The notes under the pieces: generated by a model
Database searches by the model: none
Told to the model about the DNA's origin: nothing
What the model saw: only the letters and a program-made list of their open reading frames with translations
Virus record (IMG/VR): IMGVR_UViG_3300046656_000613
Location: 30,167 to 94,166 of that record
DNA length: 64,000 nucleotides
Strand: one strand, 5' to 3'
DNA from: a virus
Taxonomy: Duplodnaviria; Heunggongvirae; Uroviricota; Caudoviricetes
Made by a program: the position numbers and the translations under genes
Shown: positions 2,106-19,066 of the stretch, piece by piece
Position numbering within the stretch: position 1 is the first letter of the stretch
How the letters are laid out: each line of letters opens with the position of its first letter

Positions 2106-2555
2106 CTAAGTGGCAACAGCATGTGTGAGTCCCAAGAGATGCTCCACCCTGGCGAGATGCTGGGGCAGCAGGCCGTGTTGGTAGCTGGTCTGCACGAAGC
2201 GGCGCGCGACGGCTCCGCGGAAAAACTGCATGTCGTCGAGGATGGCATAAGCCTGGACTTGCGGGTGCCCGGCCAGCCATGTCTCGATTTCCCGTTGCCG
2301 GCCGTCCATGCTGAGAGTGACGGAATGGAGCGGGATGCCGGCCTTCTCGATCATATCAACCAGCCGCCCGTCCAGGCGCCATGTGGAGGAGAGCGCGACG
2401 ACGACTTCCGGGTGCGCCTTCAGCCAGTTCAGCAGCAGCGCGACCAGCTTGGCGTCGAGCCCGTGCATGGCGGCCCAGATGCTGTCGCCGCCGATGCGCT
2501 CTTTTGTTGTGGCTTTGTTTAGGACACCATCAATATCCAGGAACAGGACTTTCAT
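2106..2555 (-). CDS. HAD-superfamily hydrolase (phage nucleotide phosphatase-like)
   Basis: Motif I MKVLFLDIDGVLN at the internal Met; HAD-like fold features; upstream part of ORF 2106..2675 is Arg/Ser-rich junk. Confidence 0.65.
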   Translation of the reverse strand: MKVLFLDIDGVLNKATTKERIGGDSIWAAMHGLDAKLVALLLNWLKAHPEVVVALSSTWRLDGRLVDMIEKAGIPLHSVTLSMDGRQREIETWLAGHPQVQAYAILDDMQFFRGAVARRFVQTSYQHGLLPQHLARVEHLLGLTHAVAT

Positions 2556-2801
2556 CGCCACCCAATCTGTTGACCAGAACCTCCTGGCTGACCTGCTCGG
2601 CGACCTCCGCAGGATCGCGCCCGCGGAGATCTGTGCATTTGTATTCGACGGCTTCCGCGCCGGCAGCGCCGGCACTCAGCGCCATCACTGCTGCATCGGC
2701 ATGACATTCCTCCACGGTTGGATAGCGCTTAGCCACGGACACGCCCACAGTGCTATCGAGAAAGATAACCATTACCAGCAGCCATATACCGGCACCTGAG
2801 A

Positions 2802-4864: not shown

Positions 4865-5078
4865 TTTGCAAACAGCTCATAGGCAAACAGCAAGCCGCCG
4901 ATGACGATCAGCGCCCTTAGCCCAATGACAATCCAGCGCGTCCGGGTCGGGCCGGATAACCAGAACTCTGTCTTGCAGCTCGGGCACCAGATTGCCCCGA
5001 ACCTGCCGTCCCATTCCATGTCCGGGATGACGTTCGTCGAGCTGCACTTCGGACATTTTACGACTTCGATGGTCACAG
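4861..5078 (-). CDS. zinc-ribbon membrane protein
   Basis: CPKC...CPSC zinc ribbon followed by a C-terminal TM helix; start moved to an internal GTG to avoid overlap with the next gene. Confidence 0.35.
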
Positions 5079-5273
5079 CCCGCGCTCCACATACAACTGC
5101 ATCAGCATCCTCCGCAGCACGGCCTCGGTCGGCCTGCCCTTCTTGATCCTGGCGCCGCGCGCCCGCGCCGTGTCGATGAAAGCCTCGGCAAAGCGCTCCG
5201 GCGTCTCCAGGGACTTCACCCAGCGATCCAACTCGGCAATCTCCTCCTCGCGATTGAGATCGGGCGCACTCAT
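5073..5273 (-). CDS. hypothetical protein (66 aa)
   Basis: Well-formed small ORF between neighbours. Confidence 0.4.
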   Translation of the reverse strand: MSAPDLNREEEIAELDRWVKSLETPERFAEAFIDTARARGARIKKGRPTEAVLRRMLMQLYVERGL

Positions 5274-6422: not shown

Positions 6423-6677
6423 TCATAGCGCCGGCACCTCGAAGCCCAATTCCTTGCAGATCCTGGCGATGTCCAGGAGGAACTCATGCTTGGCCTCGGC
6501 CGAGAACGACGTCAGGCCACCGCTGGCTTTCACGCCGATCTTCTCCAGCGCGAGCGACAGCTCCGTGATTGTCGCGGCCGGTTGAGATCTGCCAACCGGG
6601 AGAACCCCAGCTTCGCGCATCTCCGCAACGATGCCGTCGAAGAACTTATCTGTCTCGGCTTGAGAATCGCTCATCAC
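6423..6677 (-). CDS. hypothetical protein (84 aa)
   Basis: ORF track. Confidence 0.35.
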   Translation of the reverse strand: MMSDSQAETDKFFDGIVAEMREAGVLPVGRSQPAATITELSLALEKIGVKASGGLTSFSAEAKHEFLLDIARICKELGFEVPAL

Positions 6678-7054
6678 TTCAACTCCACTAAGCTTACATA
6701 CCCCTTGCTCGCCCTGATCCCATCGGCCGCCATGCCCAGCATGAGTGCGGCAACCGCTTCGGGGTCGGCGACGCTGACATCCCCGACATCCGTCGTCATG
6801 TCAAACCCAACGCCCTCCCAGCCGCTCTGGTAGGTGGGCACGACCCTGCCGGAAAAACGGACAGCACTCGTCGGTAGCTTCTGGGCGCGACATCCACCAA
6901 GATCCGTCGAAAGCCTCCAGACCTGATCCCGGTCGTTTTCATAAATGCGGCGCGGCAGGCCACGAAGCTTGGCCTCGATAATTTTCTCAACCGCCTGCGC
7001 AAACTGATGCACATCAGGCCCCAGCACCTTTGCCGCGAACTCCTCGTAGGTCAC
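6674..7054 (-). CDS. hypothetical protein (126 aa)
   Basis: ORF track. Confidence 0.4.
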   Translation of the reverse strand: MTYEEFAAKVLGPDVHQFAQAVEKIIEAKLRGLPRRIYENDRDQVWRLSTDLGGCRAQKLPTSAVRFSGRVVPTYQSGWEGVGFDMTTDVGDVSVADPEAVAALMLGMAADGIRASKGYVSLVELK

Positions 7055-7503
7055 TTCACCCTCGCCTTCTGCGCGCAGATCTCCAGCGCCAACGCATCCG
7101 TCCGCCCCTCGCCGCGCACATACCGCCCGTCAGGGTGGGTCAGCAGCCAGAACGTGTAGAATTCTCCATTCATGGTATAGTCATTGTGGATGGCGACCAT
7201 CCACCCAGCCCGGCGCAAGGCGCTCAAATGCCGGGCATGAAGCCCCTCGGTCTCAGGAAGTAATTCGTATGGCTCAACGCCGAGCGCCCCAGCCACCAAC
7301 TCCATCATCATCTGCGTTAGCCCAACCAAGCCGCGCTCAATTCGACTGATGTGCGCTTGCGTTGTGCCAATCCTGTTGGCCAGTTCAGTCGTTGAAATCC
7401 CCAGCGCCCCGCGCAGCTCCCTGACCCTATTGCCCCGCGTCGATTGGCCAAGCGATCGAGGTCGATCATGGCCATCCTCAATATCCGTGGTCTCAGCCAT
7501 CAC
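7051..7503 (-). CDS. XRE-family HTH transcriptional regulator (Cro/CI-type) with C-terminal domain
   Basis: HTH signature LRGALGISTTELANRIGTTQAHISRIERG. Confidence 0.7.
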   Translation of the reverse strand: MMAETTDIEDGHDRPRSLGQSTRGNRVRELRGALGISTTELANRIGTTQAHISRIERGLVGLTQMMMELVAGALGVEPYELLPETEGLHARHLSALRRAGWMVAIHNDYTMNGEFYTFWLLTHPDGRYVRGEGRTDALALEICAQKARVK

Positions 7504-7883
7504 TTCACCCCCAGCCGCATCTCAATCGCCGTCGCGACCCACTCTTCAAGCGTGGTCTCCGCCTGCGCAGCCTCCACCTTGACCCGAGTGGCCAGATCCT
7601 TCTCGATCCATATATTGAGCTGGCGCTTGCCGACCCGGCCCGCCTCGCGCGCCTTGCCAATCACCTCGGCCGTGCGCTTCTTCCCCTTCGTCGCCACACT
7701 CGGCGCAGGCTTGGCCGGCTTCAGATCCGGGGGAGGCGCATCAGCAACCTCAACCATCTTGCCAATGGCTCGCTGCAAATCCGTCAGCGACGCCTTCTTC
7801 TCCTCGCGCGAGGGACGCCCCTGCTCGGTATGCCGGGCCTCTCGCATCGCCCGCAGCGCTTCTGTCTTTGTCCCCTTGGTCAT
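7500..7883 (-). CDS. putative ribbon-helix-helix DNA-binding protein (candidate repressor)
   Basis: C-terminal RQLNIWIEKDLATRVKVEAAQAETTLEEWVATAIEMRL is RHH-like; start lies directly at a promoter with TCTAGA repeats. Confidence 0.45.
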   Translation of the reverse strand: MTKGTKTEALRAMREARHTEQGRPSREEKKASLTDLQRAIGKMVEVADAPPPDLKPAKPAPSVATKGKKRTAEVIGKAREAGRVGKRQLNIWIEKDLATRVKVEAAQAETTLEEWVATAIEMRLGVK

Positions 7884-7891
7884 GTCTAGAT

Positions 7892-7920
7892 GTATAGATG
7901 TCTAGATAGCTAGCTGTCAA
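7892..7920 (-). promoter_or_regulatory. sigma70-like promoter for the 7883 gene, with TCTAGA operator repeats (7884..7912) and a near-leaderless start
   Basis: Minus strand reads TTGACA, 17 nt, CTATAC; only about 8 nt from the -10 to the ATG; three CTAGATG-type repeats. Confidence 0.45.
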
Positions 7921-8012
7921 TGGCCTTTTTGGGGGAAGGGGGAAGTGAAGTAAAAATTTTTTTGATTGTGTGGGGGAGGATGGCACTATGGGCGCGCCCG
8001 TACTCCGCACGC

Positions 8013-8033
8013 GGGGGTGGGTGGGGGTGGGGG
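8013..8033 (+). other. G-quadruplex-forming motif GGGGGTGGGTGGGGGTGGGGG
   Basis: Four G3-5 tracts with 1-nt loops; further G5 tracts at 7931-7945 and an A5T8 tract at 7952-7966. Confidence 0.5.
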
Positions 8034-8453
8034 CGTGTGCACGTGGCGCGTGTGCTGCGCGCGGTGTTCTTTCGCGCGCGCATGTGCATCAGGCCATTCG
8101 CATAAGGTATCTTATGGCAAATTGGCCCCGGCTGCCAGGGGGTGCAAACCCTTGCTCACCAACGGTTTCCGGGGTGTGGCGACAGCGGACTGCCGCGACC
8201 TGTCGAGGGTGCGCATGCCACCCCGCCTCGCCACGCGCGGAGAATCGCGCACAGGCGCGTAGTAATACCCCGCTTTCGCATGCGAGGCCCGCCGACTTAG
8301 TTGAGCGACGAAGCGCATCCACAACCTGTGGCTGATACGCGCATGCGACAATCGCGTGTGAGTGTGCGCGGGTAGTCTTTCCTGGGGCTATCTGGCAATG
8401 GTCTGAGAGTTGTGCAAGGCGGCGATTTGGGCGTCAATTTTCGCGGGGATAGA

Positions 8454-8717
8454 CTACGCATGCGCGTGAGGCGCGTGAGGATGGCTACACACGGGCGCGG
8501 GCGCGGTGTCTTGGCCTAGCGACGCATCGCGGGCGAGCGCGACCAGCGCGGGATTGACTACGCACATGCGCACAAGCGTCGCGAGCGCGCCCGGAATGGG
8601 TCGCTCACCCGAGCGCCAGCGTCGCGCGCTGCGCACGGTGGTTCCTTCCCAGGCCGCGAGGTCAGCCGTTTTCAACCCAAGCGTGTGGCAGTGTGCTGTC
8701 AGTTCTGCGGCGGTCAT
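8454..8717 (-). CDS. HTH DNA-binding protein (Cro/antitoxin-like)
   Basis: LGLKTADLAAWEGTTVRSARRWRSGERPIPGALATLVRMCV is HTH-like; start placed at the sixth-codon Met. Confidence 0.5.
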   Translation of the reverse strand: MTAAELTAHCHTLGLKTADLAAWEGTTVRSARRWRSGERPIPGALATLVRMCVVNPALVALARDASLGQDTAPAPVCSHPHAPHAHA

Positions 8718-8761
8718 GCGGGAGGGCATCAAAACTCCAAGCTGAGCAACGGTTTTGTGAG

Positions 8762-8770
8762 TTATCCACA
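8762..8770 (+). promoter_or_regulatory. perfect DnaA-box consensus TTATCCACA
   Basis: Exact 9-mer, 30-45 bp upstream of the 8717 start. Confidence 0.4.
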
Positions 8771-8810
8771 GGCTATTTCAGTTTCAACCAGAGATTGGTT
8801 TACAGGACCG

Positions 8811-8838
8811 TCCGGTCCCCCTATAGTGAGGGCATAGC
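8811..8838 (-). promoter_or_regulatory. T3/T7-like single-subunit RNAP promoter core (CCCTCACTATAGGGGGA on minus strand)
   Basis: 12/12 match to CTCACTATAGGG and 16/17 to the T3/T7 core (-11 to +6); adjacent palindrome GGACCGTCCGGTCC. Confidence 0.35.
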
Positions 8839-9081
8839 AGAGACGGACCGGAAACGCTCCACTCTGCTACAAGGGCTCTGACGACGTTACCCGGCCCTAT
8901 GTCGGGACAAGTCACCCTAAAGAGATGCTGGGCACACACGACCGTGCAAGCATCCCGCAAGCGTCCGGTTAGTCCGGCCAGCGCATGCGGGCTGCACGGT
9001 GCCCAGGCTCAATATGAGCTTGGCTGTGCGTAGCATCAAGCACGTAGTGCTTCACTGGTCAGCCAGTGGAGTGTGAACTAA

Positions 9082-9306
9082 ATGGTAACATCTCAACAGC
9101 TTATCGACCTGATCAAGCCCTTGCTCGCCAAGGCGCGTGAATTGGATCGCATCGATATCCCTCATCGTTCCGACTTGCATCGCGAGGCGGCGATTGCCCT
9201 TGGGTATTCCGAAGGCATCACCAATTTCCTCGTCCTGGCGCTGCATTGGGAGAACGATATCGAGGCGTGGATTCGCCACGTCGAAGACGGCTTGATTGAG
9301 CCCTAA
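9082..9306 (+). CDS. hypothetical protein (74 aa)
   Basis: ORF track; first gene of the plus-strand block. Confidence 0.4.
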   Translation: MVTSQQLIDLIKPLLAKARELDRIDIPHRSDLHREAAIALGYSEGITNFLVLALHWENDIEAWIRHVEDGLIEP

Positions 9307-9435
9307 CACACTGCTCAGCCGCGCCATGCGGCTGACTTGTGAAGCGCTACGTGCTGGGAACCTCACGAATTCCATAGGCAGCCTAGACTCCAAATCCGCC
9401 TGATCACTCCCATGGGCAACCATTGGGGGATGACA

Positions 9436-9548
9436 TGAACCATTACACTCAGCAGCGCAAGCGCTCGGAAGCCGTGTTCGTGGCCAGCATGGTGTTCATG
9501 CTCGGCCTGACCGCGTTCATGGCCGCTTGCCTTGTCGTGCTCACATGA
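9436..9548 (+). CDS. small hydrophobic protein (37 aa)
   Basis: ATG preceded by GGGGGATGA; single predicted TM helix; below the ORF-track size cutoff. Confidence 0.25.
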
Positions 9549-9698
9549 GGGCAAATATCGCTTGGGCACTGTTCACCCTAGCTTTCCAGCTTGGCATAAT
9601 CTGGATTTTGCTTAGTCATTACAAGCACTAGCGACCGCGCAAGCGGTTGCCTTTGAGAGTGATCAGGCAGTCAAATCAACCTATGGGAGAATTGTATC

Positions 9699-10193
9699 AT
9701 GACCATTAACACCTATCGCGCTGTTTTCACGGCCTCGAACGGCCTGGAAATCATCGAAAACCGCGACTATGCCAAGCCGCTCGGCTTCGCATGGCGCGTG
9801 GAATACCACAATGCCAAAGACGAGACGCAAAAGGCCGTCAAGTTCGGCTTTTCCGCCACGCGTGAAGCCGCCGACAAGGCGACCAAACTGCCCAAACGCT
9901 GCACTGTCACGCATACGCAAGTCGTGGAAGCGCAGAACGTCGGCACCGTTGCCCTTAAGGGCAAGAAACCCGCCAAGGCCAAGGCTGTGAAGCCGTGCGC
10001 CGTCGGCGATATCGTCAGTTTCGACCTGGGCACGCATCTGCCCGGCATCGCCGCGACTGTCGCGGGTAAGGTGGCCAAGCTCGGCCGCAAATATGCATAC
10101 GTGGAAGTCGCGGGCGCCCTTGATCATATCAAGGTCGCGTTCGCGAACATTCGTCCCCTCGATTCCGCCCCTGCTCAAGCGCTCGCGGCGTGA
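9699..10193 (+). CDS. hypothetical protein (164 aa)
   Basis: Strong SD GGGAGAATTGTATC before the ATG. Confidence 0.5.
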   Translation: MTINTYRAVFTASNGLEIIENRDYAKPLGFAWRVEYHNAKDETQKAVKFGFSATREAADKATKLPKRCTVTHTQVVEAQNVGTVALKGKKPAKAKAVKPCAVGDIVSFDLGTHLPGIAATVAGKVAKLGRKYAYVEVAGALDHIKVAFANIRPLDSAPAQALAA

Positions 10194-10290
10194 TCGACAG
10201 AGCACCAATTGATGGCCACAATTGGCTGTCTCTGGAATTCGTGAGGTAACCTGTATTTGCGCCTTTCATGGGCAACCATGTGAGGCAGCT

Positions 10291-10701
10291 ATGGAAATCG
10301 ATATCACCGCACTGGTGGCGGAAGAAGACATGTCCGAGTTCTCCGCCTCCCAAGCCGAGCGCGGCCCCAATGCAGGGCCTGAAACATGGAATAACGCCAT
10401 GGATGAGGCGCGCGATAGGCCAATGCTATTGCCTGATCAACTGGACGAATTCCGCGATTACTTCCGCGGTTTCGGCGCATGGGAAGATGAGGAAATCAAT
10501 AGCTGGGATATCATCACCTGCAATGCGCTGTTCATTCAGTTCGTGGCTGGCGATATCCGGGAGGCGGAAAGCCTTTGCCCAGGCGATGGCACGGGCGGCA
10601 TCGATTGGGAAGCCTATCACGCGCTGGCGGAAGCTGGAACGTGCTCGGGCCGCATCTATCCCGGCGATGATGGCAAGGTCTATGCCTATATCGGAGACTA
10701 G
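10291..10701 (+). CDS. hypothetical acidic protein (anti-restriction-like?)
   Basis: Internal Met start (MEIDITALVAEED); highly acidic composition. Confidence 0.4.
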   Translation: MEIDITALVAEEDMSEFSASQAERGPNAGPETWNNAMDEARDRPMLLPDQLDEFRDYFRGFGAWEDEEINSWDIITCNALFIQFVAGDIREAESLCPGDGTGGIDWEAYHALAEAGTCSGRIYPGDDGKVYAYIGD

Positions 10702-10822
10702 CCTACTGCAACCCTTCGGGGTTGCCCTTGTAAGGCGCAAATACAGTTCCCTATTCCCATGATTTTCTTAGTGAAGGGCAGGTGTTACCCGTCTGAAATC
10801 CATATATGCAACGGAGTCACAC

Positions 10823-11677
10823 ATGACACTTGCTCAGCGCTTTTCTTATCAGGGTCTGCGGAAGCTCGACGGCTCGCGTGTTCTCAATGAAATCGAGATG
10901 CGCGAAGTCGCGCCGTCTATCTTCGCAGCGGAAGCTCACGAAAGCCGGTCTGATCGCTATGCGTACATTCCGACAATCGACGTGCTCCGCGAGCTTCAAA
11001 AGGCGGATTTTCAGCCCTTCATGGTCTGCCAGTCCACCTCGCGCATCCCCGGTAAGTCGGATTTCACGAAGCACATGATTCGCATGCGTCATCCTGACCA
11101 CATCGGCAAGGGCGGCGCGGCGGAAGTGATCCTGCTCAATTCCCATGACGGCACATCAGCTTACCAGATGCTTGCCGGTTATTGGGAAATGGTCTGCCAG
11201 AATGGCCTCATGGTCGGCAAGACCTATCAGGATGTGCGCGTTCGCCACTCTGGCAAAGCCATCGACGATGTTGTCGAGGGCGCGCATGAAGTCCTGAAAA
11301 CACTGCGCGTGGTCGAGGACTCTCGCGACCACATGCGGCAGATTCCTGTCAATCGTGACATGCAGATGGCGTTCGCTCGCGCGGCGCTTGAGCTGCGTTA
11401 CGATGAGGATGAATTCGGCAACTCGAAAGCCCCTATCCAGGCTGAAAAGCTGCTCACGGTTCATCGCCCCGAAGAAGGTCGCGATTTTGCCACGCTGTGG
11501 CGCACCTTTAACGTGGTCCAGGAAAACACCGTGCGCGGCGGCATTCGCGGCCGGACGGCAGACAATCGCCGCACCCGCACCCGCGAAGTCAAGGGCATCG
11601 ATCAGGCCAACAAGCTCAATCGCGCCCTCTGGACTCTGGCAGATGAGATGACAAAGATCCTCGCCAAAGCCGCATAA
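10823..11677 (+). CDS. DUF932/DUF945-family phage-plasmid protein
   Basis: 284 aa; recalled similarity to the DUF932 family that is common in leading regions of conjugative elements and in phages. Confidence 0.55.
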   Translation: MTLAQRFSYQGLRKLDGSRVLNEIEMREVAPSIFAAEAHESRSDRYAYIPTIDVLRELQKADFQPFMVCQSTSRIPGKSDFTKHMIRMRHPDHIGKGGAAEVILLNSHDGTSAYQMLAGYWEMVCQNGLMVGKTYQDVRVRHSGKAIDDVVEGAHEVLKTLRVVEDSRDHMRQIPVNRDMQMAFARAALELRYDEDEFGNSKAPIQAEKLLTVHRPEEGRDFATLWRTFNVVQENTVRGGIRGRTADNRRTRTREVKGIDQANKLNRALWTLADEMTKILAKAA

Positions 11678-11761
11678 CATAGCCTAACCGCCTGCCTGCC
11701 CTTCTCTTAGGAAATCATGGGAACCCGAATGCCTTCACGGGCAACCGTGTGAGGAAATACC

Positions 11762-12232
11762 ATGAAAGAACATGCTATTATTGCAGGCGCCTTGATCGAT
11801 GCTTGGGCCGATAGGCTCGACTCGGGCATTCCTCAAGCAAGCGGCGCAATGCGCAAACGTGGCGGGCAATGCTGTCTCGGCGTCTATGCCGATATAGCGG
11901 GCATTCCGCATAAATACGATGGCGATGTCAGCGACTGCGCCGTCTATGACTTTGGCGCTGGTCTCGGCCTTGTCAGCTTCCCTTCCGGGAGACTGATGCG
12001 CGAAATTGGCATCAGCGATACCGGCACCCCGCTGGACACCGAAGGCTGGAATGTGCCGGAAGAATTGCGTCACATGACCAGCGGCGAAGCTGTATGGGAA
12101 TATTCCCTGGCCACGCTCAACGATGGCCAGAACGATAACAGATCCTGGACCTTCCCGCAGATTGCGGCACTGCTGCGTCACAATAAGCAACGGCTCATGG
12201 AAATCGTTGACGGCCTTCACTTTGACGACTGA
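11762..12232 (+). CDS. hypothetical protein (156 aa)
   Basis: SD GAGGAAATACC before the ATG. Confidence 0.45.
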   Translation: MKEHAIIAGALIDAWADRLDSGIPQASGAMRKRGGQCCLGVYADIAGIPHKYDGDVSDCAVYDFGAGLGLVSFPSGRLMREIGISDTGTPLDTEGWNVPEELRHMTSGEAVWEYSLATLNDGQNDNRSWTFPQIAALLRHNKQRLMEIVDGLHFDD

Positions 12233-12314
12233 CAAACTCGCAACCGCTTTTGCGGTTGCCTTTGTAGGCATTCGGGAAATGCAATCTGCTCTATAAGGGC
12301 GGCTCACGCCCCCT

Positions 12315-12764
12315 ATGGAGAAGCACATGCTCAATCAATTCAACATGACTGACAGCAAGCTGCCGCAGCAGGTGCGACTCGATTGGTCGCGCCTTGTCAC
12401 GGACGATTGCGAGCAACCGCGCCCCGATGAGGCGATGGATGGCTTCTGGCCATCCGGCACCGCCAGCGAGGACGGCTATATCGGCACAGATGATCCGAAG
12501 GCGCTTGAAATCGCCTGGAATAATGCCGACGCTCGCATGGCCGCTTTCGAAAACGGCGACTGGACATGGGTGGGCGTGCAAGCGCGCGTTCGCATCATGG
12601 TCCCCGTCGGCGGCACCAGCTTTGCCTGCTACGAATTGACCTCGCCCGGCCTCTGGAGCATCGAAAGCGACAGCGGCGAAGAATACCTGTCGGAAGTCTA
12701 TGAGAACGAAAGGGCCACGCTTGAGGCGCATCTGCGCGTCATTGCCGCCGCCCTCGCCATCTAG
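12315..12764 (+). CDS. hypothetical protein (149 aa), bracketed by a 25-bp perfect inverted repeat
   Basis: ORF track; flanking IR at 12278..12302 and 12779..12803. Confidence 0.45.
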   Translation: MEKHMLNQFNMTDSKLPQQVRLDWSRLVTDDCEQPRPDEAMDGFWPSGTASEDGYIGTDDPKALEIAWNNADARMAAFENGDWTWVGVQARVRIMVPVGGTSFACYELTSPGLWSIESDSGEEYLSEVYENERATLEAHLRVIAAALAI

Positions 12765-12865
12765 TCACCCGCGCCGGGCCGCCCTTATAGAGCAGATTGC
12801 ATTCGGGAATCCCTTATTACCATTGCCCCCTTGATGTGGAGCTACCGCAACAGGGGAGAATTATC

Positions 12866-13339
12866 ATGCGCAAGACTTTCTCACTCGGAAAAGTCGATTA
12901 CAACCAAACCGGAAAAGCCAACTGCCCCGCCGAACTTGATGTTTCGTGGGATGGTGTCCGCTTTTCAGCTTCGGCAGGAATCTGGCAGCCATCGCGCCGT
13001 GACTACTACACATGTGGTCAATGCGTCGAGGAGGTCGCCGGATATTTCCCCGAAAATCAACTCGCTCAACGCATTCTCGCAATCTGGCGCGACTGGCATC
13101 TCAACGACATGCGCGCGGGAAGTCCGGCTCAACAGGCGTGGCTAAAAGCCAATCCTGTTACTTTCGTCTACCCTGAAAGCCACTATGAAAAAGCGTGCGC
13201 GGCGCTGGCCGATGTCGGGCTCAACCCTGACCCTGGCCACCTCCGCAATGGCAAGCCGTATTCATATGGCAGCGCATGGTTGACGGAAGAAATCCCGGCC
13301 GAGATTGTGAGCGAGATTGAAAGCTGGTTTGCAGCATGA
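12866..13339 (+). CDS. hypothetical protein (157 aa)
   Basis: SD GGGGAGAATTATC before the ATG, nearly identical to the context at 9699. Confidence 0.5.
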   Translation: MRKTFSLGKVDYNQTGKANCPAELDVSWDGVRFSASAGIWQPSRRDYYTCGQCVEEVAGYFPENQLAQRILAIWRDWHLNDMRAGSPAQQAWLKANPVTFVYPESHYEKACAALADVGLNPDPGHLRNGKPYSYGSAWLTEEIPAEIVSEIESWFAA

Positions 13340-13424
13340 CCTGAGTTGAGCCGCTTCCGGGCGGCTCCGCTTCAAGAGGGCAACGGTATGCATCCGTTTC
13401 GGTAAATGGAGCGGAGGAAAGAGC

Positions 13425-13604
13425 ATGGCCAAATACAGCGTAACGATTGAGGAGACGGTTCGCTACCAATTTGAAGTGGAAGCCGAATCCGAGACTGAAG
13501 CAAAGCTTGCGGCTGAAGACGCCTATGGCAATGCCGACAATCTCAATGATCATTATCTCCACAGCGAGAACCGCAAGGCAATCGACGTGGAGTTGCTGGA
13601 GTAG
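13425..13604 (+). CDS. small acidic protein (59 aa)
   Basis: SD GGAGCGGAGG; upstream box GGCTCCGCTTC is complementary to the SD. Confidence 0.4.
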   Translation: MAKYSVTIEETVRYQFEVEAESETEAKLAAEDAYGNADNLNDHYLHSENRKAIDVELLE

Positions 13605-13686
13605 CGCCTAGCGGGCTTCGGCCCGCTGCATTTCCCGAAGTGGATGCACTTCACGCCTGCCCTGCCGCGAGACAACGGAGGGCACC

Positions 13687-13860
13687 ATGGCACATTTAGA
13701 CATTCCCCTGACTGTTGGGTTCTTCCTGATCGTGACCGGCGCATTGACATGGCTGTTCATCGCCATAGCCGGATTCTGGTTCGTCATCGACGGGCTCGAA
13801 CGGCTTATCGACCGCCTTACCGGGCGCGAGCGGCCTGTCACGATCAGGGTTATTCGATAG
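13687..13860 (+). CDS. small membrane protein (57 aa)
   Basis: SD GGAGGGCACC before the ATG; two hydrophobic helices. Confidence 0.35.
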   Translation: MAHLDIPLTVGFFLIVTGALTWLFIAIAGFWFVIDGLERLIDRLTGRERPVTIRVIR

Positions 13861-13924
13861 CCACGGGCGCGGCGCGCGAGCGCCGTTGTCCCCCGCCAGG
13901 GCAGGCGATACCGGAGAACACCAA

Positions 13925-14134
13925 ATGACCGAAACAAAGTATCGATTGGTACGGGAGGAGCCCGGCCTATTCCGGGTTTTCTACCGTGCACACGGGCGGC
14001 TTTATTGCTTGCGGAATGATGGTGGCTTCGGACGTAAGGCGCTGACTTTCTACCAGTGCCGCAATGGTGAACCACGTTACGCGCTCGCCTTCATCCCCGG
14101 TGAAGACGAGTTCGATAACTACATCGAACCGTGA
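13925..14134 (+). CDS. hypothetical protein (69 aa)
   Basis: Internal ATG of ORF 13886..14134. Confidence 0.4.
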   Translation: MTETKYRLVREEPGLFRVFYRAHGRLYCLRNDGGFGRKALTFYQCRNGEPRYALAFIPGEDEFDNYIEP

Positions 14135-14140
14135 GGTTTT

Positions 14141-14329
14141 ATGAGCAATCTCGATATCGGCGACCGCATCACATACCACCCGCAAGGCGTGGTGCCCTCA
14201 TTGCGGGGGCAGCGCGGCGTCATCACTGCCATTGTCCGTAACGGCTGGTTCCTGGTCGATTTCGACAGGGGCTGGCTCAGCGTGAAGTGCAGTGACGTCA
14301 ACCTCGACAAGGAGAGCGCGGGCACCTAG
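14141..14329 (+). CDS. hypothetical protein (62 aa)
   Basis: ORF track. Confidence 0.4.
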   Translation: MSNLDIGDRITYHPQGVVPSLRGQRGVITAIVRNGWFLVDFDRGWLSVKCSDVNLDKESAGT

Positions 14330-14334
14330 CCCGC

Positions 14335-14386
14335 CTCGCCCTCACGTCGGGCTGCCCGCAAAGCAGCCTCATCTGGAGGCGAGTCC
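14335..14386 (+). promoter_or_regulatory. leader cassette: anti-SD box CTCGCCCTC, hairpin, SD GGAGGCGAG
   Basis: Box and SD are reverse complements and covary with other copies; hairpin GGGCTGC...GCAGCC lies between them. Confidence 0.5.
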
Positions 14387-14758
14387 ATGAACATTGAGAA
14401 TATCAACAAAACCATCGATTTCCTGAAAACCCGCAAATGGCATAGCGACGATTTCCTCATGCATGACGATTGCATGGTCGGAATCATCGGCGATGCCCTG
14501 CATGGAGATCGGGCGCACTCGCGTGCCGACAACAAGCCCTATGGGCTGCACTACATCGCCGATGCCTTTGATATCGGAGTGTCCGCCGCCCGCTGCCTTT
14601 ACATCATGAATCAGAGCGACGCGGCTGTTAACCCCTATGCCTCGCTCGCCACGTTTATGGGAATGCGGACCGAAAAGCAGAACCGCGTCCTGATCCGCAT
14701 GCTGGAGGGCCTTCGCGCCAGCGGCGGCACCCGTGTTTTCTGGGATTTCAATGCCTGA
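14387..14758 (+). CDS. hypothetical protein (123 aa)
   Basis: ORF track; preceded by a leader cassette. Confidence 0.5.
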   Translation: MNIENINKTIDFLKTRKWHSDDFLMHDDCMVGIIGDALHGDRAHSRADNKPYGLHYIADAFDIGVSAARCLYIMNQSDAAVNPYASLATFMGMRTEKQNRVLIRMLEGLRASGGTRVFWDFNA

Positions 14759-14782
14759 GACCGAGCGCGGGCGCAAGCCCGC

Positions 14783-14842
14783 CTCACCTTCCCGGAGGGC
14801 TGCCAACTCACACTCGGCAGCCCTTTTTGGAGGTGAGTTCCG
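14783..14842 (+). promoter_or_regulatory. leader cassette: anti-SD box CTCACCTTC, terminator-like hairpin plus T5, SD GGAGGTGAG, then an 11-codon uORF (14842..14874)
   Basis: Same architecture as the other copies; uORF is GTG-AGG-AGA-ATC-ACG-CCT-CAC-CAT-AAC-GCA-TAA. Confidence 0.45.
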
Positions 14843-14890
14843 TGAGGAGAATCACGCCTCACCATAACGCATAATAGCGAGTTGATTACG

Positions 14891-15340
14891 ATGGATTACG
14901 CAAAAGAGCACACCGCCGACCACACCCGCGCCCCCGATGCCGCCCGGCTCACCGAGCTGATCGAGTTCATCAAGGGCGCTCCGGCGAGCGAGCCGATCAC
15001 CGCCAAGAATTTCCGGCGCTGGTTGGTCGAGCTGGCCGGTGAAATGGTGCCGGACGGCGGCGCGCTCTGCCCTAACGGCAAGGATCACGCCTGCAATCGC
15101 GGCCTCGGCGAATGGCTCGGCATCGAGCCCTACGGCCAGGGCCGTGACGGTAGCGTGGCCTGGAATGAGCAGACCGGCTTCTCGTCGGAGCGATTCAACC
15201 GCTACGCCGACCCGGCGTGGGTTGCCGAACTGGTCAAGGCCCCGTTCGAAGAGCAGAAGGCGATGTATATCGCGCTGATCGAGCGCGTCCGTGATGCGGG
15301 CGAATTCGTCTATGACGCCAAGGTCGCGGTCGCGGCCTGA
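14891..15340 (+). CDS. hypothetical protein (149 aa)
   Basis: ATG 14891 (MDYAKEH); downstream of leader cassette and uORF. Confidence 0.45.
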   Translation: MDYAKEHTADHTRAPDAARLTELIEFIKGAPASEPITAKNFRRWLVELAGEMVPDGGALCPNGKDHACNRGLGEWLGIEPYGQGRDGSVAWNEQTGFSSERFNRYADPAWVAELVKAPFEEQKAMYIALIERVRDAGEFVYDAKVAVAA

Positions 15341-15388
15341 TAGCCTCGGCAATGCCAATGTGAGCGCGCGGTCCCTGTGATCGCGCGT

Positions 15389-15438
15389 CTCACCTTCGCG
15401 ATGGCCAGCTTAATCGGCTGGCTTTTCTGGAGGTGAGC
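15389..15438 (+). promoter_or_regulatory. leader cassette: anti-SD box CTCACCTTC, hairpin GGCCAGC..GCTGGC plus T-run, SD GGAGGTGAG
   Basis: Nine contiguous base pairs possible between box and SD. Confidence 0.5.
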
Positions 15439-15855
15439 ATGCCTGACAACGAACAACGGGCTGGCTGGGCGCTGGCATCCATCCAAGGCTTCAATAAGGC
15501 CAAGGGCGAGGTGCTGACCGATGCCGACCTGCCCGACGAGATCACAGATCTAATCGCCGATCTCGGCCACCTGTGCGACAGGCGCGGCATTGACTTTCTC
15601 ACTCACGCAAAGCGCGCCATCGGCACGTGGAGCGCGGAGAAAGAAAATCCCGAGCCCAGCATGAACCATACCGTGGAAATCGATCTCCACGGCAACCTGA
15701 CCGGCTTCGTCCGCATGATGGCGAACGCTGTCCCGGAAGTCGGCGGACTGGTCAACGACAACACCGGCGCACTGATGACGCCGGAGAGCATCCAGCGCAC
15801 CGCGCGCCATGTGCTCGAAGAAAGCGAAGCCTGCGATATCAGCGAACAGGACTAA
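15439..15855 (+). CDS. hypothetical protein (138 aa)
   Basis: ATG after SD GGAGGTGAGC. Confidence 0.5.
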   Translation: MPDNEQRAGWALASIQGFNKAKGEVLTDADLPDEITDLIADLGHLCDRRGIDFLTHAKRAIGTWSAEKENPEPSMNHTVEIDLHGNLTGFVRMMANAVPEVGGLVNDNTGALMTPESIQRTARHVLEESEACDISEQD

Positions 15856-15875
15856 CGGCTGGGGGCATTGCCCCC

Positions 15876-15926
15876 GCCACCTTCGCGTCGCGTCGCCATC
15901 ATCGGCGGCGTCATCTGGAGGTGAGC
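15876..15926 (+). promoter_or_regulatory. leader cassette: box CCACCTTCGCG, hairpin, SD GGAGGTGAG
   Basis: Same module, fourth copy. Confidence 0.45.
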
Positions 15927-16091
15927 ATGGCAGGAAGACGTGGACCCTACAACAACGAGAACGTGAAGCCGACCCGCGATCAGCCCGCGATCCGCGAGCG
16001 CATCGACAAGGAAGGCCCGGCGACGCCCGGCCGCAAGGAGGGCTCCAAGACAGGCCCGTACACTACGAAGACGGACAAGACGAAAGAGTGA
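15927..16091 (+). CDS. small basic protein (54 aa)
   Basis: ATG after the cassette; MAGRRGPYNNENVKP... Confidence 0.4.
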   Translation: MAGRRGPYNNENVKPTRDQPAIRERIDKEGPATPGRKEGSKTGPYTTKTDKTKE

Positions 16092-16116
16092 CAGGAGGGC
16101 GGGCCGCGTGCCCGCC

Positions 16117-16170
16117 TTCACCTTCGCGCCGAATTGGGCGAGATTCGCCCAATTTCGTTTGGAGGTGAAC
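16117..16170 (+). promoter_or_regulatory. leader cassette: box TTCACCTTC, 10-bp hairpin, SD GGAGGTGAA
   Basis: Box TTCACC covaries with SD GTGAAC, while other copies have CTCACC with GTGAGC. Confidence 0.5.
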
Positions 16171-16446
16171 ATGCCAAAAAAGCTACCCCCCATCCACATC
16201 CACCTTCCGCAAATGCCTCCGTCCATTGGGCTGGCGCACGACGCGGAGGGCCTGTCGATGGCGTTCACTGCCACTCCCGGCACGGATGAAGCCAAGCAAT
16301 TGGGAGGCGATTTCATCAATGCTGGACTCCGCTTGCTGGGCCGAACATCACCACAAGCAGCACTCCTCACGCGCGTGATCCGTAACGAACAACTGACCGT
16401 TGACGAATGGATCGCGACGGCGCGCGCCAAGGATATGATGAAGTGA
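16171..16446 (+). CDS. hypothetical protein (91 aa)
   Basis: ATG after the cassette. Confidence 0.5.
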   Translation: MPKKLPPIHIHLPQMPPSIGLAHDAEGLSMAFTATPGTDEAKQLGGDFINAGLRLLGRTSPQAALLTRVIRNEQLTVDEWIATARAKDMMK

Positions 16447-16709
16447 CCAGTAAAGACTACTGCGGCCGACGCGCCTGGGCGGAAGCCTGGGCGCAAAGGC
16501 TGGCGCCATCCGTCGGCACCGTTACCCCGGATGGACGCCGCATCACCTCTATCGTGGCTCAGCCCTATGGTGAAACATGGCGCTGGCCGCGATGGATCTA
16601 TAAGCGCTGGTGGTGCGTGGTCGAGCGCTGGGAATATGATGGCGAGCCCTCGCTGGGCACATTCGGCGAGGAGAACGCTCTCATGCTGGAGAGGAGAATG
16701 CCGCCGTGA
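16443..16709 (+). CDS. hypothetical Trp-rich protein (88 aa)
   Basis: GTG start overlapping the upstream stop (translational coupling). Confidence 0.35.
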   Translation: MTSKDYCGRRAWAEAWAQRLAPSVGTVTPDGRRITSIVAQPYGETWRWPRWIYKRWWCVVERWEYDGEPSLGTFGEENALMLERRMPP

Positions 16710-16831
16710 TGGAGTTCTTGACCGACCCGGCTGGTAGCCTGCTGATCGAGGACTTGATCACGCTGGCCGCCGTCCTTGTCTTTGCCGGGCGCAAGTGGGC
16801 GCTCGCGCGTTCATAGCATGGTGAAATGACA

Positions 16832-16869
16832 AAGGCCCCGGTTAGCCGTATAAGCTAAGCCGGGGCCTT
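16832..16869 (+). terminator. long GC-rich hairpin terminator
   Basis: AAGGCCCCGG...CCGGGGCCTT 10-bp stem with inner 5-bp stem, followed by TTGTTGT. Confidence 0.5.
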
Positions 16870-16891
16870 GTTGTATGTGGAAAGGAAAACA

Positions 16892-17050
16892 ATGACTCAG
16901 AAAGACAACCCGACGCCGCCGAGCCGTGAGGATGTGGTCCGCGAGGACTACGAAAAAGATCCGGGCGGCTTTGAGGACAAGTGGGGCGTAGACCCCAGCG
17001 CGCCGCCACCCGAGACGCAAGATCCGGGCGCGCCGGGCAAACGACACTAA
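16892..17050 (+). CDS. hypothetical Pro-rich small protein (52 aa)
   Basis: ATG after AAAGGAAAACA. Confidence 0.35.
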   Translation: MTQKDNPTPPSREDVVREDYEKDPGGFEDKWGVDPSAPPPETQDPGAPGKRH

Positions 17051-17076
17051 CCTACCGGGGCGGCCTTTCGGGGCCG

Positions 17077-17132
17077 CTCCTCCCGTGATGCGCTGCCTGT
17101 CCGTATCAGGCGGCGTTTTTTGGGAGGAGTTT
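17077..17132 (+). promoter_or_regulatory. leader cassette: anti-SD box CTCCTCCC, intrinsic terminator hairpin plus T6, SD GGGAGGAG
   Basis: Perfect 8-nt complementarity between box and SD; different sequence but same logic as the 14.3-16.2 kb copies. Confidence 0.5.
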
Positions 17133-17312
17133 ATGCCTGCCGATTATCACCTTCGGCCTGATCTGATCGGGCCGCTGATCGACGCCATCGCCTTCTCCGG
17201 CGACCCGCGCCTGGATGAGCTGATGGAGGAGCTGGACAGCATCCGCAAGGAAACGGAAGCCGGTCGCAACGTCATCGTCTCCATAGGCCACACCAATGAG
17301 GCGAGCACATGA
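17133..17312 (+). CDS. hypothetical protein (59 aa)
   Basis: ATG after SD GGGAGGAG. Confidence 0.4.
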   Translation: MPADYHLRPDLIGPLIDAIAFSGDPRLDELMEELDSIRKETEAGRNVIVSIGHTNEAST

Positions 17313-17524
17313 CAACCTGGATGCTGTTGATTCTCTTCGCCTACTCCAACAGCGGGCCGAACGACCCTGGCAGCGTGGCATTGCAAAGCGAGAAGATCGA
17401 TTTCTTCTCGAAGGAGGAATGCAACGCCGCCAAGCAATCGATCAGCGCCGCCGCCGAGAAGGCGGGATACCGGCGCACCATTGCCGTGTGCTTCCAGCGC
17501 GGCAGCAGCCTGATGGATAAATAG
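17309..17524 (+). CDS. hypothetical secreted or lipoprotein-like protein (71 aa)
   Basis: N-terminal hydrophobic signal-like segment. Confidence 0.4.
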   Translation: MTTWMLLILFAYSNSGPNDPGSVALQSEKIDFFSKEECNAAKQSISAAAEKAGYRRTIAVCFQRGSSLMDK

Positions 17525-17526
17525 CC

Positions 17527-17715
17527 ATGCAAGGCTATCTGTTCGGATACGCCTACGATGGCAGCCAAATGGGCCGAGTCTTCTATGGGCTGGACGGCCC
17601 GCTGACGGAAGCCAAGATCCTGGAGATCGAAGCGGATCTCGAAGGGGAAGGCATGAAGAACGTCTGCGTTATGTTCGTCACCAAAATCGACGGGGACATC
17701 ATCCCCGCACGATAG
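17527..17715 (+). CDS. hypothetical protein (62 aa)
   Basis: ORF track. Confidence 0.35.
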   Translation: MQGYLFGYAYDGSQMGRVFYGLDGPLTEAKILEIEADLEGEGMKNVCVMFVTKIDGDIIPAR

Positions 17716-17817
17716 CACCTAGGCCGGGGGAAACCCCGGCCGCCTTCCCAGATCATTTCAACACCGGCGTTAAAATGATCTGGGTGGGCGGCTGAAACGC
17801 CCAGGTAGGAGAGTCCT

Positions 17818-17991
17818 ATGAACGTAGTGCGAGTCACCGCTACGCTCGACGTCACAGTCCCCGGAGACGGGGGCTGCACTGACGCCGCGCGCACTGCGGT
17901 AACGAATGCCCTGACCCGGATCGTTGATCCGATGAAGGCAGGGATCACGATCTCCGGCGCGTCCGTGGATCGTGTGGAGCGCCTGACGTAA
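17818..17991 (+). CDS. hypothetical protein (57 aa)
   Basis: SD AGGAGAG before the ATG; preceded by a 12-bp palindrome at 17738..17778. Confidence 0.3.
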   Translation: MNVVRVTATLDVTVPGDGGCTDAARTAVTNALTRIVDPMKAGITISGASVDRVERLT

Positions 17992-18190
17992 TCGCAGCCG
18001 GACAGGCCACCTGGACCCCCGCGGGGTGAACGATGGTAGCCGGCAAGATGAAGACTACAAGGGGCGCTCGCGGCATCCGTCCGCTTGCGTCCCCAACGCA
18101 TACCACTGCGTAAACTGACCCCGGCCGAACAGCGCGGGGCGAGTACCGCTCCGCCCGGCCGGGGATCGTCCCCTGTGACCGGAGACAATC

Positions 18191-19066
18191 ATGAAAATCC
18201 TGATCGTCGCATTCCCGCGTGTCGTCTGCGGGCTATGCGCCCTCGCGCTTGGCTATTTCTGCGTAGCCAGCGCCTGGGAGGCCGGGATTGATTTTGCTGG
18301 CCTGCCCGCTGCCCTGGGCTTCTCGGCCCTGGCGGCGGGCTGCTGGTTCATCCCGTCCATCATCAGCACGACCACCTTTGCCAACCAAGTGCTGGGCTGG
18401 GTGGTGTTTGCCGTCGGCACCCTCATGGTGCTGACCACCTCCATGGGCAACGCGGCCAAACACCGCTCGGCCAATGTGGGGAGCGCGCAGACCACCATCA
18501 CCGCCTACACTCAGGCCGAGGCCGATCTGGCTCGCCTCACCCGCGAGCTGGACACCATGCGCGTCAATCCCAAGCGGCCCGGAGAAGCCCATCGGCTCTG
18601 GACCGCTACGGCGGGCTGCTCGAACGACACCCTGCCGGAAAGCAAGGACTACTGCCAAGCGGTGCGGCGCACTCAGCGTGAGCTGGGCGTGGCACGCGAC
18701 ACCATCGGCCGGGGGCGCCCTGTCTCTGCCGATCCTCAAGCTGCATCCCTGCGCAAGTTCATCGACGCGACGCCGGATCAGATCAACGAATGGATGCCGA
18801 TTCTCCTCGCCATCGCGCTGGAGATCGGCGCCACCGGCCTCATGTCCCTGGCCTTCGCGCCCATCAAGCTCCCAGGACGCCCTGGGAAGCCCCAGGAAGC
18901 CCCCATGCTGCCGCCGCCCGGCGATCCGGCATGGCTGTCATCCACGCCGCTCAGCGGCGACGTGATGCCTCGCTACACGCGGGCGCACCCGATCGGCCGT
19001 ATCGATGGCCGCAAGCTGCGCTGGCTTCCAACAAATCCCCGTCTCAACGACAACGAGGCGGCGTAG
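18191..19066 (+). CDS. multi-pass membrane protein (291 aa)
   Basis: Four or more hydrophobic helices in the N-terminal half; Pro-rich C-terminus. Confidence 0.5.
   Translation: MKILIVAFPRVVCGLCALALGYFCVASAWEAGIDFAGLPAALGFSALAAGCWFIPSIISTTTFANQVLGWVVFAVGTLMVLTTSMGNAAKHRSANVGSAQTTITAYTQAEADLARLTRELDTMRVNPKRPGEAHRLWTATAGCSNDTLPESKDYCQAVRRTQRELGVARDTIGRGRPVSADPQAASLRKFIDATPDQINEWMPILLAIALEIGATGLMSLAFAPIKLPGRPGKPQEAPMLPPPGDPAWLSSTPLSGDVMPRYTRAHPIGRIDGRKLRWLPTNPRLNDNEAA

Follow-up and report, generated by a model that had tools for sequence, protein, structure and literature searches.

The DNA stretch analyzed here (the window) comprises 64,000 nt of a Caudoviricetes genome, positions 30,167 to 94,166 of the IMG/VR virus record IMGVR_UViG_3300046656_000613. 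In its rightward early operon, one gene is enclosed by an inverted repeat whose 26-nt arms are 100% complementary and lie 474 nt apart (Table 1). This focal repeat had been noticed as a perfect 25-bp inverted repeat; it is real and one base longer. A search for further copies of the 25-mer had been proposed as a check, and in the window it occurred at these two sites only, even with up to three mismatches tolerated (0 expected from shuffled sequences). The enclosed open reading frame (ORF) spans 12315-12764, and translation probably starts at the ATG at 12327, preceded by the Shine-Dalgarno (SD) sequence GGAG at 12317-12320; this start yields a 145-aa product with 100% identity to database protein P0001. 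The protein has just nine homologues among 5.8 billion clusters. No Pfam family and no relative of solved structure were found for it, and its PHROG match was merely weak.

Examination of the surrounding operon revealed that the repeat is not a single-gene curiosity, being instead one atypically perfect member of an operon-wide system. Ten consecutive cistrons (9039-13907) each possess their own sequence-specific bracketing stem, nine of the stems being strong and the tenth weaker. In the 9.0-14.0 kb region nine stems exceeded the score threshold, compared with a mean of 0.025 in 200 dinucleotide shuffles, while the other 55 kb of the window contained two stems over the same threshold. Duplexes between cognate arms had predicted energies of -40 to -59 kcal/mol, compared with a mean of -25 and a best value of -39.7 kcal/mol for non-cognate arms (RNAduplex). 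Neighboring stems are 0-8 nt apart, so that nearly all of the intergenic RNA is committed to helices.

Table 1. Coordinates of the promoter, bracketing stems, enclosed genes and hairpins of the early operon in the window; for the cassettes, the 5' and 3' arms are separated by a slash
Feature	Position	Strand	Content or remark
Sigma-70-like promoter	8799-8827	+	TTTACA-17-TATAGT; 10/12 matches, best site in 8300-18400
Cassette A	9039-9064 / 9330-9355	+	ORF 9082-9306, 74 aa
Cassette B, outer	9360-9383 / 10224-10247	+	Encloses the inner cassette and ORF 9699-10193
Cassette B, inner (nested)	9398-9421 / 9645-9668	+	Two small hydrophobic peptides, ~9436-9633
Cassette C	10251-10277 / 10720-10746	+	ORF 10291-10701, 136 aa
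Cassette D	10754-10782 / 11695-11723	+	DUF932 gene 10823-11677
Cassette E	11724-11747 / 12253-12276	+	ORF 11762-12232
Focal 5' arm	12278-12303	+	Alternative partner of its CUCUAUAAGGG segment: leader and SD at 12310-12320
Focal cargo gene	12327-12764	+	145 aa, without assigned function
Focal 3' arm	12778-12803	+	Exact complement of the 5' arm; starts 13 nt past the stop codon
Cassette G	~12818-12842 / 13367-13391	+	ORF 12866-13339; stem weaker, interrupted (RNAduplex)
Cassette H	13389-13414 / 13623-13648	+	DpnD/PcfM-like ORF 13425-13604
Cassette I	13654-13678 / 13883-13907	+	57-aa membrane-protein ORF 13687-13860
Small GC-rich hairpin right after stop codon	12240-12259	+	Others at 10708-10725, 9631-9650, 13350-13369, 13607-13624
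Local-mode element 1	14334-14390	+	Downstream SD in 3' arm; model R1, 45.9 bits, outside training set
Local-mode element 2	14782-14845	+	35.3 bits, outside training set
Local-mode element 3	15388-15442	+	CUCACCUUC ... GGAGGUGAG, AUG close behind
Local-mode element 4	15875-15930	+	65.3 bits
Local-mode element 5	16116-16174	+	Fold and model R1
Local-mode element 6	17075-17136	+	Inner stem and U-run also score as terminator-like

The arms are 20-32 nt long and 80-100% paired. Read inward, the parts of a stem are an outer stem of 11-16 bp; a pyrimidine-pyrimidine (Y.Y) mismatch, 2 bp, and a second Y.Y or a G.U; a GC-rich inner stem of 7-10 bp; and the loop. Consecutive mismatches were spaced 3 nt in 27 of 45 cases, and the Y.Y-2bp-Y.Y motif, located 8-14 bp from the inner end, is missing from the focal stem. 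The 26-nt arms of cassette A form 23 Watson-Crick and two G.U pairs, and the 27-nt arms of cassette C contain two T.T mismatches spaced 3 nt. The placement of the arms follows the gene: 83-97% of the loop is taken up by the ORF, 8-25 nt that include the SD separate the 5' arm from the start codon, and the 3' arm starts 7-29 nt past the stop codon. This geometry would put both arms just outside the footprints of the initiating and terminating ribosomes. Nested stems, such as those of cassette B, were found in four genomes. No family match was found in Rfam, where two chance matches to miRNA precursors scored far under the gathering scores.

The inner cassette of B contains two overlapping tiny ORFs (9436-9633, ~37 and 28 aa) joined by ATGA, with hydrophobic, membrane-peptide-like products. 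The possibility that the arms are integron attC sites was considered and rejected, as arms occur on both sides of the gene and their inner ends (GGGCAACC / GGTTGCCC or others) do not fit the RYYYAAC / GTTRRRY cores.

Several features reported around the focal repeat belong to the same array. The intergenic motif GCATTCGGG is present at 11724-11732 (minus strand), 12268-12276 and 12799-12807, 2-5 nt away from where it had been placed, with six copies in the window compared with 1.6 expected; the first two of these copies are both arms of the stem of cassette E. The similar GC-rich hairpins of the original prediction, GCAACCGCTTTTGCGGTTGC, GCAACCCTTCGGGGTTGC and a third, also exist, a few bases from the given positions; the first two (12240-12259 and 10708-10725) compare with 0.05 expected. 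The 3' half of the hairpin at 12240-12259 extends into the inner end of the 3' arm and is thus an alternative pairing partner. Small hairpins of this type, often with GCAA or UUCG loops, were also found after stop codons in the related genomes described below.

Conservation of arm pairing and cassette turnover

The relatives compared were the metagenomic contigs L001, L002, L003/L004, L005/L006, L045 and L046, which encode close homologues of the focal protein, and L126, found via the neighboring gene G. The same architecture was observed in all seven relatives, with 4-11 bracketing stems per locus (one on the 956-nt contig L046) compared with 0-1 in mirror-repeat controls. The comparison set comprised ~115 loci from other phages, prophages and metagenomes in which the focal gene or gene G has a distant homologue, and 14 IMG/VR pattern hits; the layout of bracketing stems was found in none of these ~130 loci. 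Around distant homologues of the focal gene (24 genome, 14 IMG/VR and 72 metagenome loci) inverted repeats were as frequent as in the mirror-repeat control, the apparent excesses being copies of insertion sequences or operator palindromes, and homologues of gene G in other phages had no stems. As the stems occur in the clade and not in other carriers of homologous genes, they are a property of one phage clade rather than of the genes. A separate observation concerns L134, an unrelated IMG/VR contig and chance pattern match, in which inverted repeats at 5013-5207 and 6583-6888 span 159 and 256 nt; the mirror control gave none.

Arm pairing was conserved through sequence change, as seen in alignments of 5-7 sequences per orthologous family. 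In family B, 14 of 24 pairs had changed on both sides with 95% of cells paired, a result reached in 0 of 500 shuffles; when the partner was slid by 1-3 columns, ~40% were paired. Compensatory changes were found at 6 of 21 pairs in the focal family (95.9% paired) and at 4 of 17 pairs in family I. In some orthologous cassettes similarity between the arm sequences is gone, and the arms still pair.

The mismatches that remain are strand-biased. In 55 curated stems there were 77 pyrimidine-pyrimidine and only 5 purine-purine mismatches, and 64 G.T compared with 15 A.C; with one representative per arm cluster (22), the counts were 27 Y.Y versus 3 purine-purine and 27 G.T versus 5 A.C. Because a site in duplex DNA would be symmetric, this bias indicates a fold of the plus (sense) strand, and the folding molecule is most simply mRNA. 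Judged from these comparisons, selection acts on the pairing of the arms in the sense strand.

In the focal stem and in its L046 orthologue, atypically, the central mismatches have been 'healed'. The remaining focal orthologues read CUCUUGUGGGCGG / CCGCCUUCAUGAG and carry the usual two U.U mismatches; by this comparison the perfect focal repeat is a derived member of the family that has lost them. An 11-nt direct repeat, GCATTCGGGAA, at 12268-12278 and 12799-12809 borders the focal cassette alone and may be a scar of a recent recombination that also made the focal arms unusually perfect.

Across the clade, the stems enclose ~31 unrelated gene families, and the gene content between conserved cassettes is highly mosaic. 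Cassette I was found in seven clade members, while cassette H, when compared with L001 and L002, is an insertion of a whole cassette whose borders coincide exactly with the arm ends. Nearly identical arms may enclose different genes: those of cassette E (11724-12276) surround an unrelated 116-aa ORF in L002 (900-1330), and those of cassette C (10251-10746) an unrelated ORF in L045 (827-1186). Conversely, no similarity is seen between the arms around L045 397-818 and those around L126 9-422, two homologous ORFs, and the orthologues of cassette G in L001 and L126 have unrelated outer-arm sequences with pairing still kept. Since the same arms occur with different cargo and the same cargo with different arms, arms and cargo evolve partly independently. 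An 'empty' DUF932 cassette is present in L003 (5099-5231) and L045 (1192-1326), in which the ORF has been lost, the stem and leader have been kept, and 77 nt separate the arms; thus, loss of the cargo need not entail loss of the stem. The idea that this empty stem points to insertion into a hairpin loop was rejected, as it results from an internal deletion of the DUF932 ORF with the leader kept. In L003 and L004, a gene for an IS605-family OrfB/TnpB (Cas12f-like) protein is inserted between cassettes of the early array (7067-8242, minus strand).

Predicted masking and release of the Shine-Dalgarno sequence

Folding of constructs comprising the 5' arm through the start codon plus 12 nt (5'-only constructs) showed a second possible partner for the 5' arm. 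In the folds of 45 of 46 cassettes, including cassette A, the SD of the gene is paired with a pyrimidine-rich segment that lies in its 5' arm, to the outside of the Y.Y motif. In cassette C the predicted local hairpin that pairs the SD is CCUUU-CAUGG-GCAA-CCAUG-U-GAGG. For the focal gene, complementarity between the upstream arm (CUCUAUAAGGG) and the start region (CCCUAUGGAG) had already been pointed out; it is real, and the two sequences form a local hairpin that pairs the SD in the fold. The 3' arms, in turn, are purine-rich, SD-like mimics of the leader lengthened by extra complementarity (e.g., UUGUAAGG, CUGGAAU and UUAUAGAG).

The effect of the arms on SD accessibility was estimated by partition function for 45 cassettes. 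The probability of the SD being unpaired was 0.22 for the native 5' segment, 0.37 with the 5' arm shuffled and 0.57 with the 5' arm removed. Addition of the cognate 3' arm raised it to 0.54, compared with 0.21 for a shuffled 3' arm, and 43 of 45 cassettes gave a higher value with the cognate arm. When the entire focal cassette (543 nt) was folded, the 26-bp helix was present in the prediction, and the centroid structure left the leader unpaired. Within families the local anti-SD/SD hairpin has been conserved, with one clean compensatory change, CACGG/CCGUG in the window versus CAUGG/CCAUG in L002, the arms being otherwise nearly identical.

Downstream of the bracketed cistrons, a local form of the same structure was found. 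Between 14.3 and 17.2 kb, every intergenic region contains a small post-stop GC hairpin and a ~50-nt hairpin built like the stems. Its outer stem pairs CUCACCUUC with GGAGGUGAG, the latter being the SD of the next gene, with the AUG 3-6 nt downstream. Six distal cistrons (14334-17136) carry such local-mode hairpins, and relatives have the same arrangement. Their predicted energies are -25 to -35 kcal/mol, with the SD (GGAGG) fully paired, and an alignment of 23 local elements contained compensatory changes at 11 of 16 pairs. A covariance model of these elements, R1, identified 30 copies in 780 kb, all on the plus strand, five of them outside the training set and all but one marginal copy within the clade. 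A pattern scan of IMG/VR for the local element gave 14 hits, none with the bracketing-stem layout of the clade; L135 alone matched the model, and marginally (22.1 bits, E 0.0046). In six of six genomes with both forms, the gene-spanning stems are promoter-proximal and the local ones distal.

Two further observations were made in the distal region. At 14838-14891, the SD of local-mode element 2 leads to a GTG and ~10 codons before a stop, and the next real gene (start ~14882-14892) is missing a clear SD; judged by its sequence, this segment appears to be left over from a gene that was deleted. Five clade members possess, past their final local-mode element, a hairpin of the same build without an SD, GCCGCCUUCCC ... 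GGGYGGGCGGC, with a loop of 4-17 nt (17739-17792 in the window, 11650-11699 in L001, 5657-5711 in L002, 10440-10490 in L003 and 11969-12010 in L005). This hairpin may mark the end of the array.

Operon and genome context

The sigma-70-like promoter at 8799-8827 heads the rightward early operon, which bears all of the stems. Neither internal promoter-like sites (5 versus 4.3 expected) nor terminator-like sites (14 versus 9.1 expected) were in excess within the operon, and the combination of one strong promoter with no surplus of internal ones fits a long polycistronic transcript. Minus-strand promoters were not in excess either. Two promoter candidates were rejected. A T7-promoter-like sequence, CTCACTATAGGG, on the minus strand at ~8819 is merely the -10 element TATAGT of the plus-strand promoter. 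The CTTG/TTG of the 3' arms does not qualify as part of sigma-70 promoters, since the spacing to -10-like hexamers is inconsistent and the sites are not in excess.

The cargo of the array consists of ORFans, the DUF932 gene and a gene for a DpnD/PcfM-like protein. Leftward genes of the window encode an HTH_3 repressor-like protein, SSB (972-1373) and a HAD_SAK_2 protein. Other window genes encode a prim-pol, a helicase, a DnaD/O-like protein, a RecT-like protein, Bro-N/ANT and an endolysin; an exonuclease-like match was weak (E 6e-5). Finally, an ORF of 3299 aa (49769-59668, minus strand) encodes a polyvalent protein with an LPD38 'large polyvalent protein' domain and a Ros/MucR domain. Giant polyvalent proteins are thought to be delivered along with the DNA of phages and conjugative elements. 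From this gene content the source element is a phage or phage-like element, and the Ros/MucR domain hints at an alphaproteobacterial host. No relative of this phage was found in INPHARED at the DNA or protein level, and in a search of plasmid DNA the DUF932 gene was the sole match.

The HAD_SAK_2 match (ORF 2106-2675, minus strand) is to the HAD domain of 'Swiss Army Knife' RNA-repair proteins, and the ORF adjoins the SSB gene in the leftward operon. This match deserves mention because the early operon of the same element seems to be built around RNA processing.

Possible roles of the stems

Taken together, the comparisons and folds demonstrate conserved, mutually orthogonal sense-strand helices that enclose each cistron, and a competing anti-SD/SD pairing. 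Long-range pairing between the 5' and 3' parts of an mRNA had been among the options offered for the focal repeat, and it is the one supported here, by compensatory changes, by sense-strand-asymmetric mismatches and G.U pairs, by the placement of arms relative to start and stop codons, and by the predicted release of the SD. On balance, we favor the view that the repeat represents the two halves of a long-range helix in the early-operon mRNA, which would act as a 5'/3' switch of each cistron and, probably, as an RNase III-type (ribonuclease III) processing helix.

The proposed mechanism is as follows. First, during transcription of a cistron, the anti-SD-like part of the 5' arm is predicted to pair locally with its own SD and to mask it. 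Second, the 3' arm, once it has been made past the stop codon, would capture the 5' arm, so that the SD would be exposed only after the whole cistron has been transcribed. Third, the finished helix, of about two turns and with a two-fold-symmetric central motif, could be a processing site of a double-strand-specific RNase, the host RNase III being the most plausible candidate. Such a cut would permanently sever the anti-SD segment and excise the cistron, leaving the GC-rich inner stem or the adjacent post-stop hairpin overlapping the 3' arm to clamp its ends. In the distal genes the same helix would be folded locally, with the real SD within its 3' arm. The local-mode hairpins are very stable, their SD is buried and a competitor arm is missing; an opening step would therefore be needed, which is the main indirect argument for processing.

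Several points weigh against this proposal. No RNase III signature motif was found in the window, and so a host enzyme must be assumed; moreover, the central mismatches could equally be anti-determinants that block RNase III cleavage. The predicted rise in SD accessibility (0.22 to 0.54) is moderate and comes from simplified constructs, and the local anti-SD/SD hairpin covaries weakly, because the SD cannot vary. The mismatch counts are not independent, the stems being orthologous across genomes, although they remain significant after collapsing. The complementarity of inverted repeats may also persist by templated repair at the DNA level, of which the perfect focal repeat may be an example. 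Finally, blocked co-transcriptional translation could expose the RNA to Rho termination and make a strict switch costly.

An alternative that shares much with this proposal is that the helices serve only for RNase III-type processing or for stability and yield stable monocistronic units, the anti-SD pairing being incidental and a 3'-end switch absent. Helices of 22-31 bp with a symmetric central motif would suit such a role, as would GC-rich inner stems and stable post-stop hairpins, which would shield the ends; the local-mode hairpins bury the SD and need opening, and the stem was retained after deletion of the ORF in L003 and L045. However, the pairing of the 5' arm with its own SD in 45 of 46 cassettes and the mimicry of the leader by the 3' arm are then left unexplained, and cleavage would itself be an assumption. 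We regard a role in processing only as rather unlikely; it overlaps with the favored explanation and does not exclude it.

A different class of explanation places the function of the repeats in DNA, as boundaries or homology arms for cassette exchange between related phages, similar to integrons or to promoter and stem-loop repeats (PeSL) of T4-type phages, RNA pairing being a by-product. The mosaic gene content is in line with this, as are the gain and loss of whole cassettes exactly at the arm ends, the near-identical arms around unrelated cargo (cassette E and L002 at 900, cassette C and L045 at 827), the RecT-like annealing protein with the weak exonuclease-like match, and the 11-nt direct repeat flanking the focal cassette. 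Yet exchange explains neither the strand asymmetry nor the geometry relative to codons nor the SD pairing, and orthologous arms diverge completely and stay complementary. No shared core sequence was found, target duplications were not general, and no integrase was found next to the array; in addition, inverted repeats would favor inversion over excision, and inversion was not seen. We consider a primary function in exchange improbable. Exchange of cassettes is probably a consequence of the format, not its function.

Still less probable is a fold formed in single-stranded DNA, entering or replicating, like the hairpin promoters or origins of conjugative leading regions. Typical leading-region genes are indeed present (DUF932 and DpnD/PcfM in the array, SSB upstream, and the polyvalent protein), and complementarity as such is strand-neutral. 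The ratio of G.T to A.C (64:15), however, favors the sense, i.e., non-template, strand, which would be useless for single-strand promoters; the arms are set by start and stop codons, the local-mode elements pair the SD itself, and the element is phage-like (endolysin, RecT, prim-pol, Bro/ANT).

A perfect 26-bp inverted repeat around one gene, with an 11-nt direct repeat at its borders, might suggest an invertible segment or the terminal repeats of a miniature transposable element. Both are extremely improbable, as the cassette has a single orientation, that of its neighbors, in all seven relatives, the arm sequence is unique in the window and the arms differ from cassette to cassette, target-site duplications are not general (flanking direct repeats of 49 cassettes averaged 4.22 compared with a null value of 4.21), and no integrase, recombinase, invertase or transposase was found among the window ORFs scanned, namely those flanking the array. 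Of the original proposal of an invertible or mobile cassette, inversion thus found no support, and neither did the transposon-like part of mobility, the arm pairs being unique; mobility in the sense of cassette gain, loss and cargo swapping among relatives was borne out.

Stems recognized by RNase III bracket the 16S and 23S rRNA in rRNA operons, and the early region of phage T7 has intercistronic RNase III sites. The helices described here resemble them in that inverted repeats around a functional RNA form about two turns, with central non-Watson-Crick features that could here either direct or block cleavage, and they would likewise separate the units of a polycistronic RNA and protect its structured ends; the T7 sites are, however, local intergenic hairpins and the rRNA stems enclose stable RNAs, whereas the present helices span mRNA genes. 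To our knowledge, Y.Y-2bp-Y.Y is not a described determinant of RNase III.

Nearest in logic are toxin mRNAs of the hok/sok type, which have a tac/fbi 5'-3' fold-back, an anti-SD element 'ucb' and metastable 5' hairpins (PMC9841398). The common features are a helix between the 5' and 3' untranslated regions (UTRs) around the ORF, an upstream anti-SD, a transient 5' hairpin and mutually exclusive pairings, and covariation was found here as well. In hok, the 5'-3' helix silences the mRNA, which is activated by 3' trimming, and the system comprises a single toxin gene and an antisense partner (PMC9841398). The polarity here is opposite, since the helix is predicted to release the SD; furthermore, the cargo belongs to many unrelated families, the device is present on every cistron, and an antisense RNA partner is not evident. 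In icaR mRNA of Staphylococcus aureus, an anti-SD in the 3' UTR pairs with the SD region, represses translation and creates an RNase III substrate (PMC3868564). This is likewise 5'-3' UTR pairing at the SD region, but it concerns one chromosomal gene, is repressive and is not deployed on each cistron of an operon.

The SAS/ESAS repeats of Cluster K mycobacteriophages are located at the translation starts of a subset of genes, and half of them are preceded by 17-bp imperfect inverted repeats with a spacer of 4-13 bp (PMC3203893). They resemble the local-mode elements, but differ in sequence and host and have a consensus common to their inverted repeats, whereas the inner stems found here all differ and covary; a gene-spanning version of SAS/ESAS has not been described. 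The PeSL of T4-type phages are direct repeats of a promoter with a terminator hairpin, which act in DNA recombination and flank non-essential ORFans in hyperplastic early regions (PMC2839356). The context of cassette shuffling is similar, but the arms of the present array are gene-specific inverted repeats, and promoters and terminators are not in excess. Finally, in the ORF-centric operon mRNA structure of E. coli, each ORF is a structural unit setting its own translation, as a statistical property (PMC5318159); closure of each ORF by a dedicated conserved helix would, if so, be an explicit, hard-wired case.

Communication between the 5' and 3' ends of an mRNA and processing stems are thus known, and what is new is their per-cistron deployment on the operon of an undescribed phage clade. 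Full-text literature searches turned up no account of a phage operon whose genes are bracketed one by one by helices. It is possible, and we suggest it tentatively, that this phage lineage has evolved a portable 'mRNA cassette' format, in which a private helix delays translation, directs excision and end clamping, and insulates swappable genes. If true, such a format would parallel integron cassettes at the RNA level and would be the first case in which translation throughout an operon depends on each cistron's own 3' end.

The conserved Y.Y-2bp-Y.Y motif points to a recognition rule of a double-strand RNase or RNA-binding protein in Alphaproteobacteria, and the ~50 natural, mutually orthogonal arm pairs could be usable as insulators or switches in synthetic operons. 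If the prediction holds, the array would provide a design rule for polycistronic mRNAs, in which a 25-nt arm on each side makes a self-contained cistron with delayed translation and a defined processing site. It would also stand as an operon-wide natural example beside the few single-gene cases of 5'-3' UTR pairing, such as hok and icaR, and would offer a mechanism by which early regions tolerate the constant gain, loss and swapping of genes.

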